Source: Clostridia bacterium (GTDB lineage: Bacteria > Bacillota > Clostridia > Oscillospirales > CAG-272). From it: DNA of 64,000 nucleotides. The stretch spans positions 5,750 to 69,749 of the forward strand of contig JAFVRG010000015.1 in NCBI GenBank assembly GCA_017504405.1, given 5' to 3'. The position numbers and the translations under genes are program-made. Under the pieces are notes generated by a model. The model was given only the letters and a program-made list of their open reading frames with translations, made no database searches and had not been told where the DNA came from. Of the stretch, positions 3,252 through 64,000 are shown piece after piece; the first letter of the stretch is position 1, and every line of letters starts with the position of its first letter.

Positions 3252-5654
3252 TTACCGTACTACGATATTGATGATTTTGTTGGGAACTACTATTTCCTTG
3301 ATAATTGTCTTGCCGTCAAGAAGACTTGCAAATTTAGGCTCTGCCTTAACAGCAGCAATTGCAGCATCCTTATCGCAGTTAACGGGAAGTACAATAGTAC
3401 CTCTGAGCTTACCGCAAATCTGCACAGCAAATTCTACGGTGCTGTCTACGGTTTTTGCCTCGTCATATTCGGGCCAGGGAGCAAGAGAGATGAACTCCTT
3501 TTCTCCGAGGTCAGCCCACATTTCCTCAGCGATATGAGGAGAGAACGGTGCTAACAGACGCAGGAAAATCTTTAATTCGTCAACTGTGTATTCTCCAACC
3601 TCCAAAACCTCGTTTATATAACCCATCATAGCCGCAATAGCGGTATTGAATTTCATAGAATCTATGTCCGAGGTTACCTTCTTTATGAGCTTATGCGTTG
3701 CGCTCTCGAGCTTAACTGTTACGCCGTTACCCTTAGCAATTGTTGCGAGGTCGGCAACTCTCTCCAAAAATCTCTTGCAGCCCTTAACACTGTTTTCTGA
3801 CCAGGGAGCCGCCTGCTCATAGTCACCCATAAAGAGAATATAAAGACGCAATACGTCTGCACCGTAGGTTTCTACAACCTCAAGAGGGTCTACAACATTG
3901 CCCTTAGATTTACTCATCTTATCTCCGTCAGGACCTAGAATGAGTCCCTGAGCAGTTCTCTTTGCATACGGCTCAGATGTAGGCACAACACCTATATCGT
4001 AAAGGAATTTGTGCCAGAATCTCGAATAAATGAGGTGACGTGTTACGTGCTCCATTCCACCGTTGTACCAGTCAACGGGGAGCCAATATCTGAGCTTATC
4101 CTCAGCCGCAATAGCATCACTGTTGTGGGGGTCTATATAGCGGAGGAAATACCATGACGAGCCTGCCCATTGAGGCATCGTGTCGGTTTCTCTCTTAGCC
4201 GGCTTGCCGCACTTAGGGCACTTGCAGTTAACGTAGCTTTCAATCTTAGCGAGGGGGCTCTCTCCACCCTCACCGGGGGCAAAATCCTTGACCTCGGGAA
4301 GCATGAGCGGCAGTTCCTCATAAGGAACAGCAACCATTCCGCAGTCATCGCAGTGAACGATAGGAATAGGCTCACCCCAATATCTCTGACGGTTGAACGC
4401 CCAGTCCTTCATTTTGTACTGAACGCCGCCCTCGCCGATATTATTTGCCTCAAGATGCTCTATCATTTTTGCGATAGAATCCTTCTTGTTTGTGAAGCCG
4501 TTGAGAAAATCGGAATTTACCATCTCACCGTCGCCTGTATATGCCGCCTCAGCAATATTTCCGCCCTTGATAACCTCGATTATGTCTATGCCAAACTTCT
4601 TTGCGAAATCGTAGTCACGCTCGTCGTGTGCGGGAACAGCCATAATTGCGCCTGTTCCGTAGCCCATCATTACGTAGTCCGAGGTGTAAATGGGAATTTT
4701 CTTGCCTGTTATAGGATTGATAGCGGATATGCCCTCAATTTTAACTCCCGTCTTTTCCTTTACAAGCTGAGTTCTCTCAAATTCGGTCTTCTTTGCGCAC
4801 TCGTTTTTATAATCGTTCAGCGCATCTATGTTGCTGATTTTATCTGCGTATTTCTCAATAATAGGATGCTCGGGGGCTATAACCATGAACGTTACTCCGA
4901 ATAGCGTATCGGGACGTGTTGTGTAAATTCTGAGCTTTTCATCAACACAAGCAAGCGAAAAGTTAACAAACGCGCCCTGAGATTTTCCTATCCAGTTCTT
5001 CTGCTGGAGCTTTATGTTGGGAAGATAATCAACATCCTCAAGTCCTTCAAGAAGCTTATCAGCATACTCTGTTATGCGCAGATACCATACGTCCTTTGAC
5101 TTTTGTATTATCTGGCTCTTACAAATATCGCATTTACCGCCCTGCGAATCCTCATTGGAAAGCACGACCTTACAGCTTGGGCAGTAGTTTACGAGCGTTT
5201 TGTCACGAAAAGCAAGTCCGTTCTCAAACATTTTGAGGAATATCCACTGCGTCCATTTGTAGTAATCAACTTCAGTTGTATCGATAACTCTTGACCAGTC
5301 AAACGAGAAGCCGACTCGGCGGAGCTGCATCGAAAACTTCTCGATATTGTTATCAGTAACCTGACGGGGGTGAATGCCTGTTTTTATAGCATAGTTCTCG
5401 GTAGGCAGACCGTATGCGTCAAATCCGATAGGGAAAAGAACGTTGTAGCCCTGCATTCTCTTCTTTCTTGAAATAACCTCAAGACCGGAATACGCCTTGA
5501 TATGTCCGACGTGCATTCCTGCACCGCTCGGATAGGGGAATTCGACAAGACCGTAAAACTTAGGGAGCGAAAAATCGTCTTTCGCCTCGAAAATCTTAGC
5601 ATCCTCCCACTTTTTTTGCCATTTAGGCTCGATTGATTTGAAATCGTACTTCAT
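3252..5654 (-). CDS. leuS: leucine--tRNA ligase
   Basis: 800 aa; class I HIGH (HVGH) and KMSKS motifs; LeuRS-like throughout. Confidence 0.95.
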   Translation of the reverse strand: MKYDFKSIEPKWQKKWEDAKIFEAKDDFSLPKFYGLVEFPYPSGAGMHVGHIKAYSGLEVISRKKRMQGYNVLFPIGFDAYGLPTENYAIKTGIHPRQVTDNNIEKFSMQLRRVGFSFDWSRVIDTTEVDYYKWTQWIFLKMFENGLAFRDKTLVNYCPSCKVVLSNEDSQGGKCDICKSQIIQKSKDVWYLRITEYADKLLEGLEDVDYLPNIKLQQKNWIGKSQGAFVNFSLACVDEKLRIYTTRPDTLFGVTFMVIAPEHPIIEKYADKISNIDALNDYKNECAKKTEFERTQLVKEKTGVKIEGISAINPITGKKIPIYTSDYVMMGYGTGAIMAVPAHDERDYDFAKKFGIDIIEVIKGGNIAEAAYTGDGEMVNSDFLNGFTNKKDSIAKMIEHLEANNIGEGGVQYKMKDWAFNRQRYWGEPIPIVHCDDCGMVAVPYEELPLMLPEVKDFAPGEGGESPLAKIESYVNCKCPKCGKPAKRETDTMPQWAGSSWYFLRYIDPHNSDAIAAEDKLRYWLPVDWYNGGMEHVTRHLIYSRFWHKFLYDIGVVPTSEPYAKRTAQGLILGPDGDKMSKSKGNVVDPLEVVETYGADVLRLYILFMGDYEQAAPWSENSVKGCKRFLERVADLATIAKGNGVTVKLESATHKLIKKVTSDIDSMKFNTAIAAMMGYINEVLEVGEYTVDELKIFLRLLAPFSPHIAEEMWADLGEKEFISLAPWPEYDEAKTVDSTVEFAVQICGKLRGTIVLPVNCDKDAAIAAVKAEPKFASLLDGKTIIKEIVVPNKIINIVVR

Positions 5655-38518: not shown

Positions 38519-38938
38519 ATGCTCAACATAAAAAGAGGCGACATATATTATGCAGACCTGAGCCCTGTTATTGGAAGTGAGCAGGGTGGACTTCGACCTG
38601 TACTTATAGTACAAAACGACGTGGGAAACAGATACAGTCCGACTGTGATTGCGGCGGCAATTACAAGCAAGCTTGACAAGACGAGATTACCCACTCACAT
38701 AGATATATATGCAAACGAGGTTGGACTCGCAAAGGATTCCGTGATTTTACTTGAACAGATACGCACCCTTGACAAACGAAGGCTGAAAGAGAAAATGGGG
38801 CATCTCGACGACGGCTCTATGCGTGCGGTTAATTCCGCTATCGCAGTCAGCTTCGGCCTGTCGGAGGAGCGATACGGGGAGACGAACACCGCAACGGCAT
38901 ACCGAAACGAAGAAAATTTACTAAATAATATAGGATAA
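38519..38938 (+). CDS. mazF: MazF/PemK (EndoA-like) endoribonuclease toxin
   Basis: [47 protein letters not shown] signature; SD AAGGGAG. About 25-aa extension after the family's usual ...SFGL end. Confidence 0.8.
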
Positions 38939-59875: not shown

Positions 59876-60538
59876 ATGATATTTAACAATATGGACAGAA
59901 TAGTTTTTGCAGGAGATTCCGTAACCGATATGGGCCGTTCAAGACCTGTTGGCGAAGGACTTGGTGATAGCGTTGGACACGGATACGTGCGTATGGTTGA
60001 AAATTTGCTCTCTGCGTGCTATCCCGAGGTAAAGCTGCGTATCAGCAACGTTGGATGCAGCGGTGACCGTTCAAGCCATCTTCTTGCCCGTTGGGAGCAG
60101 GACGTTGTTGCTTTAAAGCCCGACTGGGTGAGCATCTGCATAGGAATTAACGACGTTTGGCGTCAGTTTGATATGCCCGCAACTCCCGAGCAATGGTGCT
60201 TACCTTCGGAATACGAGGCAAACCTTGAAAAAATGCTGATTTCCGCAAAGAGTATAAGCAAGGGCGTATTCCTGATGACTCCCTACTATATGGAGCCAAA
60301 CGCAGATGACTGGATGCGTGCGAGGATGGACGAATACGGAGCTATATGCAAAAAGCTCGCTGAAAAGCACGGCGTAGAGTTTATCGACCTGCAAGCAATG
60401 TTCAACGAATATTTTAAGCACCGTCATTCCTCATATATCGCCTGGGACAGAGTTCACCCCAACCAGGTCGGCGCAACACTTATAGCAAGAGAGTTCCTCT
60501 CTCACTGTGACTTTGATTACAACCACACCGCAAAATAA
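59876..60538 (+). CDS. SGNH/GDSL hydrolase family protein
   Basis: RIVFAGDSVTD block I, GINDV block III, DRVHP block V. ATG 59876 lies 6 nt after GAGGTG. Confidence 0.75.
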   Translation: MIFNNMDRIVFAGDSVTDMGRSRPVGEGLGDSVGHGYVRMVENLLSACYPEVKLRISNVGCSGDRSSHLLARWEQDVVALKPDWVSICIGINDVWRQFDMPATPEQWCLPSEYEANLEKMLISAKSISKGVFLMTPYYMEPNADDWMRARMDEYGAICKKLAEKHGVEFIDLQAMFNEYFKHRHSSYIAWDRVHPNQVGATLIAREFLSHCDFDYNHTAK

Positions 60539-60541
60539 AAC

Positions 60542-60572
60542 AAAAAGCCCTGCTCCCGCAGGGCTTTTTATT
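60542..60572 (+). terminator. rho-independent terminator
   Basis: AGCCCTGC-TCCC-GCAGGGCT followed by TTTTT. Confidence 0.65.
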
Positions 60573-60627
60573 ATCAAAACTATCACCGCAATTTTAATCC
60601 AACCGTTAAATTGGGATTTGACATTAT

Positions 60628-61308
60628 TTATTCGAATTTAATGCTTCCCGTGTTTGTTTTTATTTCACATCTTCCACCGATTGCTTCTCCAATAGGGGTT
60701 TTTGGTATTTCTATTTTGCCAGTGTTAGTGCGGACTATAAACACCATGTTAGACGGCAGTCTGCCACAAACCCTTCCTGTGTTGGTTTTTACAAAAATCT
60801 CACGGGAAGAGCAATTGTTTAATAAAACCTTTCCAGTGTCTCGTTTGATTGAAATGCTTTCTTCCGCAGTAAATTTGTTCAACGAAATAGATCCGGTATT
60901 TCCTTTTGAATTAAAAGCTTGGCAGAAGACATTTTCTAAATTAATTTTTCCAGTGTTTATCTGGATATCTAAAGTTCCTTTACAATTTATTGAAAAGATA
61001 TCGACGTGTCCTGTATTGGACTTTGTCGAGATCGTTTCGAGCATTGATTTAGGGATACATAGTCTAATTTCCGAACGGTCTAGACCAATTCTTAAAAAAT
61101 TGTACCATCTTGTTTTTGCCAATTTAATTGTAAGCGTATCATCTTCAATGAAAAATTCGTATGGATGTTTTTTATTTTCGAAAAAAAATAATTTTGTGCC
61201 ACCGTCGCTTGACGGTTCTATCTTTACGTTCGCATCTTTCGCATTAAGAAATATTTTTTTATACGTATCTGTTATTTCATATGTGTTTGTAACGTATTTT
61301 GCAATCAT
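60628..61308 (-). CDS. DUF4097-like beta-strand repeat protein
   Basis: Repeated NTG(K/R/S)I/V motifs (TGHVDI, TGKINL, TGSISL, TGKVLL, TGRVCG, TGKIEI, TGSIKF). SD GGAGG 6 nt upstream of ATG 61308. Confidence 0.6.
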   Translation of the reverse strand: MIAKYVTNTYEITDTYKKIFLNAKDANVKIEPSSDGGTKLFFFENKKHPYEFFIEDDTLTIKLAKTRWYNFLRIGLDRSEIRLCIPKSMLETISTKSNTGHVDIFSINCKGTLDIQINTGKINLENVFCQAFNSKGNTGSISLNKFTAEESISIKRDTGKVLLNNCSSREIFVKTNTGRVCGRLPSNMVFIVRTNTGKIEIPKTPIGEAIGGRCEIKTNTGSIKFE

Positions 61309-61348
61309 TTTACGCCTCCATATAAACTCAAGTTTATCTATCAGTTGT

Positions 61349-61377
61349 ATTGTACCATAATTTTTACCAAAAGTAAA
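61349..61377 (-). promoter_or_regulatory. sigma-A type promoter of the DUF4097-like gene
   Basis: Minus strand: TTTACT, 17-nt spacer, TGgTACAAT (extended -10). Confidence 0.45.
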
Positions 61378-61400
61378 TAGGACGGCGAAAAGAGTTTACA

Positions 61401-61546
61401 GTTATGAGCTTGCTTCGCAATTGTTATGATTTTGCCTTCGGCAAAAGTTATGATATGATTGCCCGCATCTCCTCAACGCGACGTAGTCGCTCATAGCTTG
61501 GCGTAGCCAATCATAACTCTAAACTTGCCCGAAGGGCAATCATAGT
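61401..61546. repeat. convergent array of triloop hairpins, each abutting the heptamer GTTATGA / TCATA(A/G)N
   Basis: Heptamers at 61401, 61423, 61447 (forward) and 61491, 61511, 61540 (reverse). Hairpins at 61410-20, 61430-46, 61478-90, 61498-510 and 61525-39. Confidence 0.7.
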
Positions 61547-61560
61547 TGCACCTCAGTTCA

Positions 61561-61639
61561 TCCAAGAGATAACAAAAAGCACTCCGCATGTGCGAAGTGC
61601 TTTTTGAAATTCGACCAAAGGTCGAAATTATCTCTTGGA
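61561..61639. repeat. 12-bp perfect inverted repeat enclosing two hairpins (one terminator-like)
   Basis: TCCAAGAGATAA (61561-72) / TTATCTCTTGGA (61628-39). Inside: AAAAAGCACTCCGC-ATGT-GCGAAGTGCTTTTT (61574-605, one internal C/A mismatch in the stem) and TTCGACC-AAA-GGTCGAA (61610-26). Confidence 0.6.
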
Positions 61640-61653
61640 GAAATAAGAACGCT

Positions 61654-61683
61654 GTTTTGTAGTGTTTTATAGCGTTTTGAAAA
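61654..61683. repeat. three tandem 10-bp T-tract repeats
   Basis: GTTTTGTAGT, GTTTTATAGC and GTTTTGAAAA, phased at 10 bp. Confidence 0.6.
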
Positions 61684-61758
61684 GTCCGATAAAATAAGGA
61701 TTTACCTTGATTATTGTATCATAACTTTTTGTAAATTGCAATAGCCTTTTGTATTTTC

Positions 61759-61786
61759 GGACATCAAAAGGACATCACGGACATCA
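61759..61786. repeat. three direct GGACATCA repeats at the integrase 3' end
   Basis: Copies at 61759-66, 61770-77 and 61779-86; the last one contains the integrase stop codon. Confidence 0.65.
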
Positions 61787-62923
61787 ATTTCCATTCAGTT
61801 TTAAGGAAATCAAATCAGCAACTTTTGCCTTTGAGCTTTTCAAAACATCTGCATATACATTCGCTGTTGTTGATACATCTGAATGACCGAGCAACTCACT
61901 TACAATTTTTAAGTCAATACCGCTGTTTATCAAAAGCGTTGCATTGCAATGGCGTAAACTATGCAAAGTGATAAAGTCAAAGTCTGTACCTTTTACAAAT
62001 CGTCTGAATTGTGTGTTGAGTCCTGACCTATCAACAAAATTTCCGCTCTCTGTTGTAAATACCATTTCAGGATAAGTATATAATTTTCCGAGTTTGCTCA
62101 ACTTTTCCTCATTATACTTTTTCTGTTCTCTGAATATATCAGCCAAAATATCAGATAAAGCAATATATCTGTTACTTGTTGCTGTTTTAGGCGGTTGAAG
62201 CCAATGTTTACCGCCCACATCTGTTAAAGTGTTTTCAATGTGTATTGTCTTATTTTCAAAGTCTATATCTTGCCAACGGAGAGCCAAGCACTCACCTGAA
62301 CGCATACCCGTAAATAACAATACTTTTATAATGCGGTTGAATTGTGTGTTATCCTCAACCATTTTTAACAAGTCCTTTGCTTGATTTTCGTCAAGAAAAG
62401 GCTTTTTTTCTTTTGCTGTTTCCGCTTTTGGCAATATAACCGCCTTTGTGCAGGGCGTTTCTTTGATGAAACCTTGCTCCACAGCACGAGCAAAAACACT
62501 TTGCAAAATGACATATACTTTGCGACAAGTCGCAGGCTGATAAGTACGAGTCTTGAAAAACGCTGTAATCTTTGCAGGGGTAAAATCTTTGAGTTTGATG
62601 TTTCCTAATTCAGGGAGCAAATTGTTTTTTATTTGCTTTTCGTAGTTGTAGGCGGTTATCGGCTTTAACTTGTTTTTTGCGTAGTTATCAATAAACCATT
62701 CAGCCATTTCAGAAAACCGCATATTTTCATTTAACGAGGACAGCCCTCTACATTTACGCTCAAATTCAACTGCAAATTCTTGAGCGAGTTTTTCAGCCTT
62801 TTTCGGTGTAGTATTTTCAGGCGGTTTATATGTAGTTGTTTTTCTGATTTTCTTTCCGTTCACATCAAGACCGAGAGAAACCACAATTTGAAATGTGTTG
62901 CCACGCTTATTTATTGTTGCCAT
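61784..62923 (-). CDS. int: tyrosine-type site-specific integrase
   Basis: 379 aa; N-terminal arm-binding-like domain (MATINKRGNTFQIVVSLG), catalytic R (FTGMRSGE), HSLRH, LGHSD...Y (ANVYADV). Confidence 0.9.
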   Translation of the reverse strand: MATINKRGNTFQIVVSLGLDVNGKKIRKTTTYKPPENTTPKKAEKLAQEFAVEFERKCRGLSSLNENMRFSEMAEWFIDNYAKNKLKPITAYNYEKQIKNNLLPELGNIKLKDFTPAKITAFFKTRTYQPATCRKVYVILQSVFARAVEQGFIKETPCTKAVILPKAETAKEKKPFLDENQAKDLLKMVEDNTQFNRIIKVLLFTGMRSGECLALRWQDIDFENKTIHIENTLTDVGGKHWLQPPKTATSNRYIALSDILADIFREQKKYNEEKLSKLGKLYTYPEMVFTTESGNFVDRSGLNTQFRRFVKGTDFDFITLHSLRHCNATLLINSGIDLKIVSELLGHSDVSTTANVYADVLKSSKAKVADLISLKLNGN

Positions 62924-63803
62924 TTTTTACACCGTCCTTATACTTTTTTAAGAAAATCCAATAATCAGATAAGTTTTGCACCGAAGCACATTTTTTGATT
63001 TTTGTCATATACTCTGTACATTCGTCTAAAAAGTCATAAACAAATTGCTCTGTACTTAAATGCTCCCTTACCATTGAGTTATATATTCTTTTCTTTTCTC
63101 TTTGTAATTCTTGATTGATATTCCTAACGGCTTGCTCACAAGGTAAATGCTCATAGCCATTAAATGTGCTTTTTCTGTTACAGTATTTTTTTCTGCTTCC
63201 TGCTCTGCTTCCGTCCTTGAAAAACCAACGCCCACAATGTGAACATTGAGAAAATTTATATCCGTTTTCTAATGCAAAGTGAATTGATGAAAAAATAATA
63301 TCTTTTATATCCGTACTTTCATAACTGTAAAAAATATCGTCTGTTTTACTGTCAATACGCAGTGGTATATAATGCTGATTTTCAACTTCAAACAGTTTGC
63401 GGTTGAGAGTTATTCGTTTACTGTTTGCGTAAATATCAAAAAATTCTTTTGTAAAATTATTGTGTTGGAAATATTCCCTGTAGTCTTTTTCAGCATTATA
63501 AAGTTGATATTCAAAAAATTTATTATTTGTTTCGCTTGTAGCAACAAACAATTTTTTGAAGTAATCAAAGGTATTTTCACAAGCGAGCAAATCACCGTAT
63601 AAATGCAAATAATCAAAATAACAATGTTTAAGGTGAAATAGTGTGATTTTCTCTATTTCATTTTCGGCTTCACCGTCTGCAAAATCCGCTCTCACGCTGT
63701 CGCTCATTTCATCATAATTATCAAAAGTTACTCTCAAATCTAATTGAGCGGACGAGCTTTTTTTAGAATAATATACTGTAAATTTCTGTTTCAATACATT
63801 CAC
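62907..63803 (-). CDS. Cys-rich hypothetical protein coupled to the integrase (DUF6076-like, from memory)
   Basis: About 295 aa; CSHCGRWF...YCNRKS...LPCE cysteine cluster. 17-nt overlap with the int start. Start is GTG 63803, or TTG 63794 (6 nt after GAGAGGTG). Confidence 0.5.
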   Translation of the reverse strand: MNVLKQKFTVYYSKKSSSAQLDLRVTFDNYDEMSDSVRADFADGEAENEIEKITLFHLKHCYFDYLHLYGDLLACENTFDYFKKLFVATSETNNKFFEYQLYNAEKDYREYFQHNNFTKEFFDIYANSKRITLNRKLFEVENQHYIPLRIDSKTDDIFYSYESTDIKDIIFSSIHFALENGYKFSQCSHCGRWFFKDGSRAGSRKKYCNRKSTFNGYEHLPCEQAVRNINQELQREKKRIYNSMVREHLSTEQFVYDFLDECTEYMTKIKKCASVQNLSDYWIFLKKYKDGVKNGNNK

Positions 63804-63830
63804 CTCTCAAAATGTTTCCTTTCATCATAT

Positions 63831-63859
63831 ATTGTATCACAACATTTTGACAATGTCAA
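63831..63859 (-). promoter_or_regulatory. sigma-A type promoter of the accessory-gene/integrase operon
   Basis: Minus strand: TTGACA (63859-54), 17-nt spacer, TGaTACAAT (extended -10, 63839-31). The -35 lies inside the palindrome TTGACAATGTCAA. Confidence 0.55.
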
Positions 63860-63934
63860 TAGTTATCATCATCATTTATAATAAAGTTACAAAGGAAGTG
63901 CACAACCTTTAATTCTACGAAAGGAATAAAAAGA

Positions 63935-64000
63935 ATGTATAATTTAGAAATCAGAATGAAGATAAAACAAAATCGTCTTTGCCATTATGAAGTTGCACGA
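63935..64000 (+). CDS. partial CDS, possibly an XRE-type HTH regulator (N-terminal 22 codons only)
   Basis: ATG 63935 after AAAGGA; MYNLEIRMKIKQNRLCHYEVAR resembles the start of Cro/CI-type HTH proteins. Truncated by the window edge. Confidence 0.3.
   Translation, partial: MYNLEIRMKIKQNRLCHYEVAR

Follow-up and report, generated by a model that had tools for sequence, protein, structure and literature searches.

We analysed a 64,000-nt stretch of the Clostridia bacterium contig JAFVRG010000015.1 (hereafter, the window), in which an earlier reading of the bare sequence, the original prediction, had singled out clustered heptamers and triloop hairpins at positions 61401-61546. The window is core chromosome of ~45% GC, encoding ribosomal proteins, IF3, EF-P and an M24 peptidase, and its GC content drops to ~33% from about 60600 onwards, where a DUF4097 gene, the hairpin array and a neighbouring integrative element follow one another. 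The array occupies the spacer between a Rho-independent terminator and the DUF4097 promoter, and it represents a 'mini-hairpin + tail' module that recurs, evolves fast and matches no described family. The gene and the array are laid out as follows.

60628-61308, minus strand: DUF4097 ('toastrack', LiaG-like) gene; GC 33% against 45% for the chromosome
61349-61377, minus strand: DUF4097 promoter, TTTACT-17-TACAAT with TG
61393-61400: outer arm of a 15-bp inverted repeat that closes the minimum-energy fold (61393-61407 with 61511-61525)
61401-61420, minus strand: unit 1, mini-hairpin TTGC-GAA-GCAA (which holds GCGAAGC), then GC and the tail TCATAAC
61423-61446, minus strand: unit 2, hairpin TTTTGCC-GAA-GGCAAAA, tail TCATAAC
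61447-61464, minus strand: truncated unit 3, GTTATGA-TATGA-TTGCCC, 3' arm missing
61465-61477: array centre GCATCTCCTCAAC, conserved with the centre of a related array at locus L019, GTTCTCTCAAT
61478-61497, plus strand: unit 4, hairpin GCGAC-GTA-GTCGC, tail TCATAGC
61498-61524, plus strand: unit 5, hairpin TTGGC-GTA-GCCAA, tail TCATAAC, then TCTAAAC
61525-61546, plus strand: unit 6, hairpin TTGCCC-GAA-GGGCAA, tail TCATAGT

Anatomy of the array in the window

A sequence check placed the heptamers exactly where they had been reported (GTTATGA at 61401, 61423 and 61447; TCATAGC at 61491, TCATAAC at 61511 and TCATAGT at 61540) and likewise the hairpins at 61410-20, 61430-46, 61478-90, 61498-510 and 61525-39, every one of them with a 3-nt loop. 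The units are genuine hairpin-plus-tail sites arranged in two opposed sets. Six had been counted; five are complete, whereas the third on the left (61447-64) is truncated and retains its heptamer and the 5' arm TTGCCC alone. Part of this remnant (61454-61464) is perfectly complementary, at 11 of 11 nt, to 61534-61544, and the TCTAAAC that follows the tail of unit 5 is a degenerate tail belonging to the 15-bp inverted repeat. The seventh TCATAAC does lie at 61719 as noted originally, but this copy falls in a promoter-like -10 region inside the integrase element and outside the array.

The hairpin array is real and unique within the 64-kb window. The window contains 21 copies of GTTATGA, where shuffled sequences have 8.25 +/- 3.3, and five of them fall between 61401 and 61725. 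Scanning for RYTATGA followed within 0-5 nt by a perfect hairpin returned five clustered units at the array (61401 and 61423 on the plus strand; 61546, 61517 and 61497 on the minus strand) and two weak singletons in the remaining 63.8 kb, whole-window shuffles giving 1.8 matches. Indeed, at least four perfect hairpins per 160 nt were found at the array alone, the maximum in shuffles being three. No open reading frame (ORF) of at least 60 codons exists between 61361 and 61748, as the original prediction had stated.

Both strands folded more stably than shuffled sequences (-49.3 kcal/mol and z -3.55 for the plus strand; -47.5 kcal/mol and z -2.23 for the minus strand). The minimum-energy fold is a junction stack in which 61393-407 pairs with 61511-25 and the hairpin at 61525-39 stays outside. 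Stacking of the units into multi-way junctions is possible, as proposed; the fully nested pairing of heptamers proposed along with it is worse than the optimum by 13 kcal/mol with RNA parameters and by 6-10 kcal/mol with DNA parameters.

Recurrence, co-varying stems and strand logic

We scanned genome and metagenome collections with the DUF4097 protein and examined the loci carrying the gene (L013-L024, L036, L037, L049 and L139-L146); the metagenome scan contributed only two further close loci. Beside the gene, these loci hold at least six further arrays built to the same design, and in the ~200 kb of fetched sequence hairpin clusters occur beside the DUF4097 gene only.

L017: GTGATAT(T) plus hairpin three times, an A/T-rich centre, hairpin plus ATATAAC three times, then ATATCAC
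L019: a short array with ATGAAT/ATTCAT
L020: two arrays, upstream and downstream of the gene, with TATATCATCA; each directly after a terminator plus TTTTTTATCC
L023: an array of the L020 type with fewer units
L036: a half array with ATTTCAT four times, ended by the contig edge

Other hairpins were seen as well. L006 has a G+C-rich multi-hairpin block at the corresponding position, and L013 and L015 carry convergent CCGATATCT(N3)TCGG hairpin sites beside a tRNA-Met att repeat. Clusters of G+C mini-hairpins free of conserved tails lie in the 3' untranslated region (UTR) of the gene at L014, L016, L018 and L036 (GTGT-AGC-ACAC, CTTTC-AAAA-GAAAG and TTTTGC-AAA-GCAAAA, then a terminator) and in its 5'UTR at L139 and L140 (AGGGC-TTT-GCCCT and CCTTTGT-AAA-ACAAAGG).

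Two pairwise comparisons reveal how the module evolves. The window and L019 share both flanks of the array (the terminator module, at 95% identity, and the promoter), yet the array spans 160 nt with six units in the former and 70 nt with about three in the latter; unit gain took place on both sides, and the tails all switched in concert (TATGATT versus ATGAATT). The upstream and downstream arrays of L020 have nearly identical linkers of 10-12 nt (TGTATATCATCA / TGATGATATACA), while each stem is different and nonetheless perfectly complementary, so that the first hairpin (CCAAACC/GGTTTGG versus CCATTGC/GCAATGG) displays three double compensatory changes. The centre piece of L020, complementary to the first unit, changes in step with it; the same long-range complementarity between first unit and centre is kept with differing sequences in the window (the 11 of 11 nt mentioned above), L019, both L020 arrays and L023. 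Conserved tails next to changing but complementary stems indicate that tails are constrained in sequence and stems in pairing only. Moreover, gene copies that are 96-99% identical have arrays of different types beside them, or none, which means that the arrays behave as exchangeable modules dispensable for the gene.

A C-GNA-G triloop, counted on either strand, closes 14 of the 18 triloop hairpins in seven arrays, where 1/8 would be expected (p = 4e-10), and all five in the window conform (GAA, GAA, GTA, GTA, GAA). C-GNA-G is reportedly a motif of exceptionally stable DNA mini-hairpins, in work attributed to Hirao (1994) and Yoshizawa (1997). The strand bearing the GNA flips between the halves of every array, and on that strand every unit reads as a hairpin followed by a 3' tail with TCAT (TCATAAC in the window, ATTCAT in L019, TGTATATCATCA in L020 and L023, ATTTCAT in L036). 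Because of this flip, each DNA strand shows proper units of its own, whereas any one transcript carries half of them as complements.

These patterns bear on the possibility that the arrays have no function at all, being a quasi-palindromic minisatellite at a recombination hot spot, which replication slippage and template switching would both create and hold symmetric, or, in another form of the argument, scars of hairpin-targeting insertion and excision. Unit number does differ between close relatives (window and L019), arrays are swapped or absent beside near-identical genes, att cores, tRNA fragments, split terminators and iterons are pieced together in the region, and template switching can perfect hairpins without selection. 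Against such an origin, the tails are far better conserved than the stems, both within and between paralogous arrays; the logic of C-GNA-G hairpin and TCAT tail, in which the first unit reappears inverted and truncated at the centre, recurs in at least six arrays from different genomes; and slippage does not predict the C-GNA-G enrichment. We hold it to be unlikely. If it applied, the arrays would still show clearly how a quasi-palindromic repeat at an integration hot spot evolves in concert.

A structured RNA is, in our judgement, about as improbable. The array would then be transcribed by read-through from the upstream gene or within a long DUF4097 mRNA leader, serving in stability, insulation or attenuation, or it would yield a small RNA that stops at the bidirectional terminator. 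Consistent with it are the strong folding of six arrays (z -3 to -7 against shuffles), the co-varying stems with a long-range helix of 11-13 nt kept with different sequences, the mini-hairpins in the 5'UTR (L139) and 3'UTR (L014, L016) of the gene, and two promoter-like matches within the window array. The DUF4097-sense strand is also 3-6 kcal/mol more stable in L019, the downstream array of L020 and L023, the strands being equal elsewhere. GC skew suggests, though, that in the window the DUF4097-sense strand serves as lagging-strand template, so its stability advantage cannot separate transcription from replication.

Several observations count against an RNA, and in particular against the plus-strand RNA that the original prediction had offered as one option. 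Rfam covariance models run with cmscan at E up to 10 over 60000-64000 yielded nothing in 61309-61555, in agreement with the earlier failure to recognise a family; the nearest matches are weak and terminator-like (~60540 and 61556-61608). The related arrays show no consistent promoter. Those of L020 and L023 begin 0-3 nt past the T-run of a terminator, which leaves no room for a promoter on that strand, L017 has its terminator on the other side, and the array of the window comes immediately after a strong terminator. Promoter-like sites are missing from the interior of the L017 and L020 arrays, which also led us to reject the idea of a sigma-70 promoter array. The more stable strand in relatives, where there is one, is the DUF4097-sense strand and not the plus strand. 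Furthermore, the imperfect heptamers, which had been expected to form G-U pairs on a plus-strand RNA, give G.A and C.U mismatches in L017 instead of wobbles; the DNA-stable C-GNA-G triloops change orientation between halves, leaving a transcript with half the units as complements; and many gene copies have no array.

Beyond these loci, we searched viral contigs for the heptamer-spacing patterns of the window type and of the L017 type and obtained 16 and 65 loci, respectively, none with the array architecture; they consist of tandem repeats in coding sequence, direct iterons of phages or a small single-stranded DNA (ssDNA) virus origin. Neither did blastn of 61300-61800 match anything in the phage and plasmid collections, and our literature searches turned up neither such arrays nor a mobile DUF4097 gene.

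The DUF4097 gene unit and the integrase element as neighbours

On one side, the array adjoins the DUF4097 gene. Promoter and ORF form a discrete homology unit of ~765 bp (61360/61386 to 60597) that we found in 12 species-representative genomes of uncultured gut Clostridia, at 66-82% amino-acid identity, with flanking genes that are unrelated from genome to genome on both sides; in all, more than 12 gut Clostridia genomes have the unit. Relatives in a large protein collection are almost always on contigs of 0.7-1.2 kb, and metagenome assemblies usually break at the gene edges. Such isolated short contigs together with the differing neighbours indicate that the DUF4097 DNA either is mobile or recombines very readily. 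None of these features is seen in more distant homologues (58-62%), which are ordinary genes of the chromosome. The protein had no match in a scan of viral contigs, nor did tblastn find one in the phage and plasmid collections.

At three loci (L016, L014 and L017) the gene lies in an insertion that interrupts the hairpin of a Rho-independent terminator and is not accompanied by a target duplication. The terminator halves are AAAAAGAGTGG at 2832 and CCACTCTTTTT at 3859 in L016, AAAACGGACGG at 2656 and CCGTCCGTTTT at 3860 in L017, and lie at positions 302 and 1331 in L014. Insertions of the L016 type end in a 13-bp terminal inverted repeat (CTCATAGGGATTT/AAATCCCTATGAG). The array is within the insertion in L017, while the L014 and L016 insertions have none. 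Neighbours of the gene in L017 and L020 are housekeeping genes, with no recombinase present. A 6-bp TTGGAT flanking array plus gene, considered as a target duplication, could not be supported in L019.

Other repeats accompany the gene. The DUF4097 ORF is bracketed by an inverted 16-18-bp site, A[CT]AAAT-N4-ATTT[GA]T (e.g., CGATAAATAAGAATTTG and CGACAAATTCCAATTTGTCG), which in the window falls at 61318-61335, in the 5'UTR, and at 60605-60622, past the stop codon. Copies of this palindrome also stand behind the stop codons of adjacent ORFs in L141 and L144 (about 460) and of a GNAT gene in L019 (599-616); the palindrome could be an operator, a small intercistronic hairpin, or a pair of inversion or recombination sites. 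In L013 (2535-2611 and flanks) the gene sits between direct repeats of ~190 nt that end in a tRNA-Met 3' end (CTCCGCAACCA), and in L024 (about 4007-4091) among repeated tRNA-Leu fragments; both loci are integration hot spots with tandem remnants.

On its other side, the array is followed by a linker, a terminator and the end of an integrative element.

61547-61572, plus strand: linker, in which TGCACCTCAGTTCA and TCCAAGAGATAA make up an inverted attB-like core copy with a chromosomal-type left flank
61573-61606: bidirectional Rho-independent terminator, between integrase element and array
61610-61626: small triloop hairpin TTCGACC-AAA-GGTCGAA beside the att core
61628-61640, minus strand: att core CTCCAAGAGATAA, a 13-mer, end of the integrase element
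61784-62923, minus strand: tyrosine integrase of phage type, encoded by the adjoining integrative element; no partner of the array

The original prediction had linked the array to this integrase and to the protein encoded at 62907-63803, and had considered an att- or ori-like role. We found ten contigs carrying exactly the same integrase, seven of which reach far enough downstream for comparison. These seven are 98-99% identical to the window from 62000 to about 61626-61628 and then diverge completely, each continuing with a different terminator and different genes. Since contigs with the identical integrase diverge at the core before reaching the array, the array is not part of the integrase element: it lies ~80 nt outside, with a terminator in between. 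Neither the integrase nor the 62907-63803 protein is a natural partner of the array, and a role of the array as att site or arm of the adjacent element, or as its origin, is not supported. The array illustrates that a feature adjoining an integrase need not belong to the element of that integrase.

The integrative element extends from 61628 to 64000 and past the window end. Its integrase matches phrog_1 phage integrase best and scores 78.6 bits against the integron-integrase model TIGR02249, far short of its cut-off of 265 bits; it is followed by a DUF6076 protein and, in L001 and L011, by a D5_N/DUF5906 primase-helicase. In L002 the 13-mer core forms the 3' end of a 583-aa gene (last five codons, I-S-K-R-stop), which makes the core one of attB type, and the element seems, from this sequence context, to target the 3' ends of genes with an ISKR-stop C-terminus. 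The array terminator also bears the attB core used by the element, an inverted copy of which lies at 61561-72. The hairpin at 61610-61626 is common to L019 and to the second core copy of L005, where it reads TTTCGACC-GAA-GGTCGAAA. Just after the terminator, (GA)ACTGAGG (61551-61557 in the window; L005, about 2060-2260; L007, about 1880-1977) occurs in three contexts with the identical integrase, G+C hairpins coming next. A tRNA or tmRNA gene as integration target was discarded, ARAGORN detecting none in the window.

Within the element, GGACATCA occurs three times at 61759-61786 (spacing 11 and 9), overlapping the end of the integrase ORF at 61784 and running just past it, and TGTTTT(G/A)TAG twice at 61653-61672; these repeats are probably its arm-type or accessory sites. 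An outward promoter-like site (TTGCAA-17-TACAAT with TG, 61713-61741, minus strand) at the element end points outward over the att core; in the -10 region it is similar to the DUF4097 promoter, the likeness forming part of a 33-nt repeat (61348-80 / 61712-44, 73%). A block of iterons (TTGGTGCAA twice, CACGATAT eight times) in L019 (620-790) and L037 (2270-2366) ends in a window-type att core and stands before terminator module, array and gene in L019 and after the gene in L037; it is probably the arm of a second, related integrative element.

This setting brings to mind that the 7-12-mers might act in double-stranded form, as iterons, arm-type or operator sites bound by a sequence-specific protein, with the palindromes as mere spacers, for example in a head-to-head helicase-loading origin, a centromere or the attP-like site left by a decayed integrative element. 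Two inverted sets of three at ~20-25 bp spacing do recall attP arms, SF3-helicase origins and parC-type centromeres; the array sits at an integration hot spot beside an inverted att core copy, classical iterons (CACGATAT, eight copies in L019 and L037) are found near related loci, and the neighbouring element encodes a D5_N primase-helicase. Nevertheless, the irregular spacing of 19-29 bp puts the sites off one helix face, and spacers that are perfect palindromes, compensatory substitutions and C-GNA-G enrichment are left unexplained. The array is outside the integrase/primase element, and no DNA-binding gene is linked to the arrays, even though the tails differ beside gene copies that are 96-99% identical. 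We rate this explanation somewhat below the two considered above.

Interpretation and likeness to known systems

The sections above establish how the array is built and where it lies, that its design recurs, that its tails are kept while its stems co-vary, and that it does not depend on the integrase element. We tentatively favour the interpretation that the array is a cis-acting DNA module whose hairpin + tail units are recognised, single-stranded or extruded, by a structure-specific enzyme encoded elsewhere; of what the original prediction had proposed, protein-recognised hairpin + tail DNA sites are still the best reading. The single-stranded DNA form, the partner enzyme and the reaction are inferred, and we give this interpretation less than even odds. 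Each unit would consist of a G+C stem of 4-7 bp, a C-GNA-G triloop and an A/T-rich 3' tail with TCAT, in two opposed sets of two to three, and the module would act as DNA, not RNA. In a single-stranded state, such as a lagging-strand template, transfer or extrusion, each strand would present stable hairpin + tail sites of its own. The enzyme would have its closest analogy in an HUH/Y1-type nuclease-transposase or a hairpin-using recombinase, and the array might, much like REP/BIME or attC sequences, be a site of recombination or mobilisation that travels with the gene unit and helps it to be exchanged.

In support of the DNA module, we tentatively count the insertion into a terminator hairpin at L017, with the array inside. 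Such targeting has a precedent in IS1272 and TnSha1 (IS1182 family), which insert into terminator hairpins without target duplication (PMC4923244). The DUF4097 insertions of L014, L016 and L017 resemble them in splitting a terminator hairpin in the same way; the likeness concerns, however, the array-carrying insertion (L017) and not the array, no IS1182-type transposase was found, and the window has no evident split terminator.

Several findings weigh against the DNA module. No HUH/Y1 transposase or other candidate enzyme is encoded near any array; in particular, none of the ten small ORFs of the window, checked since Y1 transposases are small, is a transposase, and the L017 and L020 neighbours include no HUH/Y1 gene. 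A single array in 64 kb does not make a genome-wide REP-type family, as far as is visible from the window. Gene copies devoid of an array (L014, L016, L018, L049 and L139) indicate that it is dispensable for the gene, and breakpoints between near-identical gene copies fall at the promoter and 5'UTR, not inside arrays. We recovered no empty site, excision circle or junction polymorphism; in the search for empty sites via the GDSL neighbour, all contigs either carry the DUF4097 gene or break inside it. Finally, the modest stability advantage of the DUF4097-sense strand (three of six arrays) fits RNA equally.

A more specific and more doubtful version of the DNA module casts the arrays as recombination sites of an undescribed gene-mobility system of gut Clostridia. 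The C-GNA-G + TCAT units would be used single-stranded by a hairpin-specific enzyme encoded elsewhere, whose action would transfer or swap small units with promoters of their own, the DUF4097 gene among them, beside or into terminator hairpins, following an integron- or REPIN-like logic. To our knowledge, integrons are essentially absent from this phylum. If true, ssDNA recombination or mobilisation sites would be a new route for the spread of small accessory genes among gut Clostridia, recognisable in searches by two opposed sets of C-GNA-G hairpins with TCAT tails, and would account for the DUF4097 gene breaking metagenome assemblies into ~1 kb contigs. That the array is something else altogether has a small residual chance.

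Among described systems, the nearest in presumed function are REP/BIME-RAYT, integron attC and the hairpin + tail ends of HUH elements. REP/BIME sequences (SMAG, REPIN; RAYT, a Y1 HUH enzyme) share several features with the array: they are extragenic, adjoin terminators, combine a short conserved single-stranded motif with a G+C imperfect palindrome whose stems co-vary, cluster in both orientations (head-to-head/tail-to-tail), and are targets or companions of mobile DNA. The array differs in having a 3' TCAT tail where REP has a 5' GTAG head, in forming one cluster in 64 kb in place of genome-wide dispersed copies, in stems that differ within the array, and in three forward then three reverse units instead of alternating ones. 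Identity with a REP/BIME-RAYT system was rejected, there being no Y1/RAYT gene among the small window ORFs or the L017 and L020 neighbours and no 5' GTAG head.

Integron attC sites are likewise imperfect palindromes of 60-150 nt with variable sequence but kept architecture and 7-nt boxes (GTT.../...AAC); they lie beside mobile gene cassettes and act as folded single strands, and a branched variable terminal structure would be possible in both. Box order is nevertheless reversed in the array (GTTATGA...TCATAAC versus RYYYAAC...GTTRRRY), with five of seven positions fitting each box; there are three boxes per arm as opposed to one pair per site, the DUF4097 gene has its own promoter, and the L020 and L036 arrays lack GTT/AAC. 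An attC site was excluded on the grounds that the box order is wrong on both strands, that no IntI is present (78.6 versus 265 bits for the integrase) and that the integrase element ends before the array.

The ends recognised by HUH enzymes (IS200/IS605 right end, IS91/Helitron 3' hairpin, relaxase oriT) also have a G+C hairpin and, a few nt further on, a short conserved single-stranded sequence on one specific strand, and the tails TTGATGATAT and GTGATATT bear a tentative resemblance to CTTGATA-type Rep nick sites. The array has, in contrast, multiple tandem units on both strands, neither defined element ends nor a target motif, and no transposase, Rep or relaxase gene nearby. IS200/IS605 ends and PATE were dismissed in view of abutting units on both strands and the lack of a tnpA among the small window ORFs.

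C-GNA-G also occurs in the palindromes of Streptomyces telomeres and is similar to the arms of adeno-associated virus (AAV) inverted terminal repeats (ITRs). Streptomyces telomere overhangs and the AAV ITR resemble the array in their closing helix with several C-G-closed mini-hairpins of 3-nt loop over ~150 nt, and are recognised as folded ssDNA by replication proteins; they stand at the ends of linear replicons, whereas the array is internal to a chromosome and has no terminal protein or Rep.

CRISPR and TIGR guide arrays were set aside, the array having two inverted repeat sets, palindromic spacers, DUF4097, integrase and DUF6076 neighbours, and no Cas or Tas. As for ssoA-type single-strand origins, which have conserved RSB and CS-6 motifs and belong to rolling-circle plasmids or integrative and conjugative elements, reading of the sequence showed that the CS-6 motif (TAGCGT/ACGCTA) is absent from 61393-61552, and comparison with the plasmid collection indicated that the array is not on a plasmid. 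Elsewhere in the core chromosome of the window, a PemK/MazF-family toxin gene (type II toxin-antitoxin) lies at 38519-38938 and is unrelated to the array.

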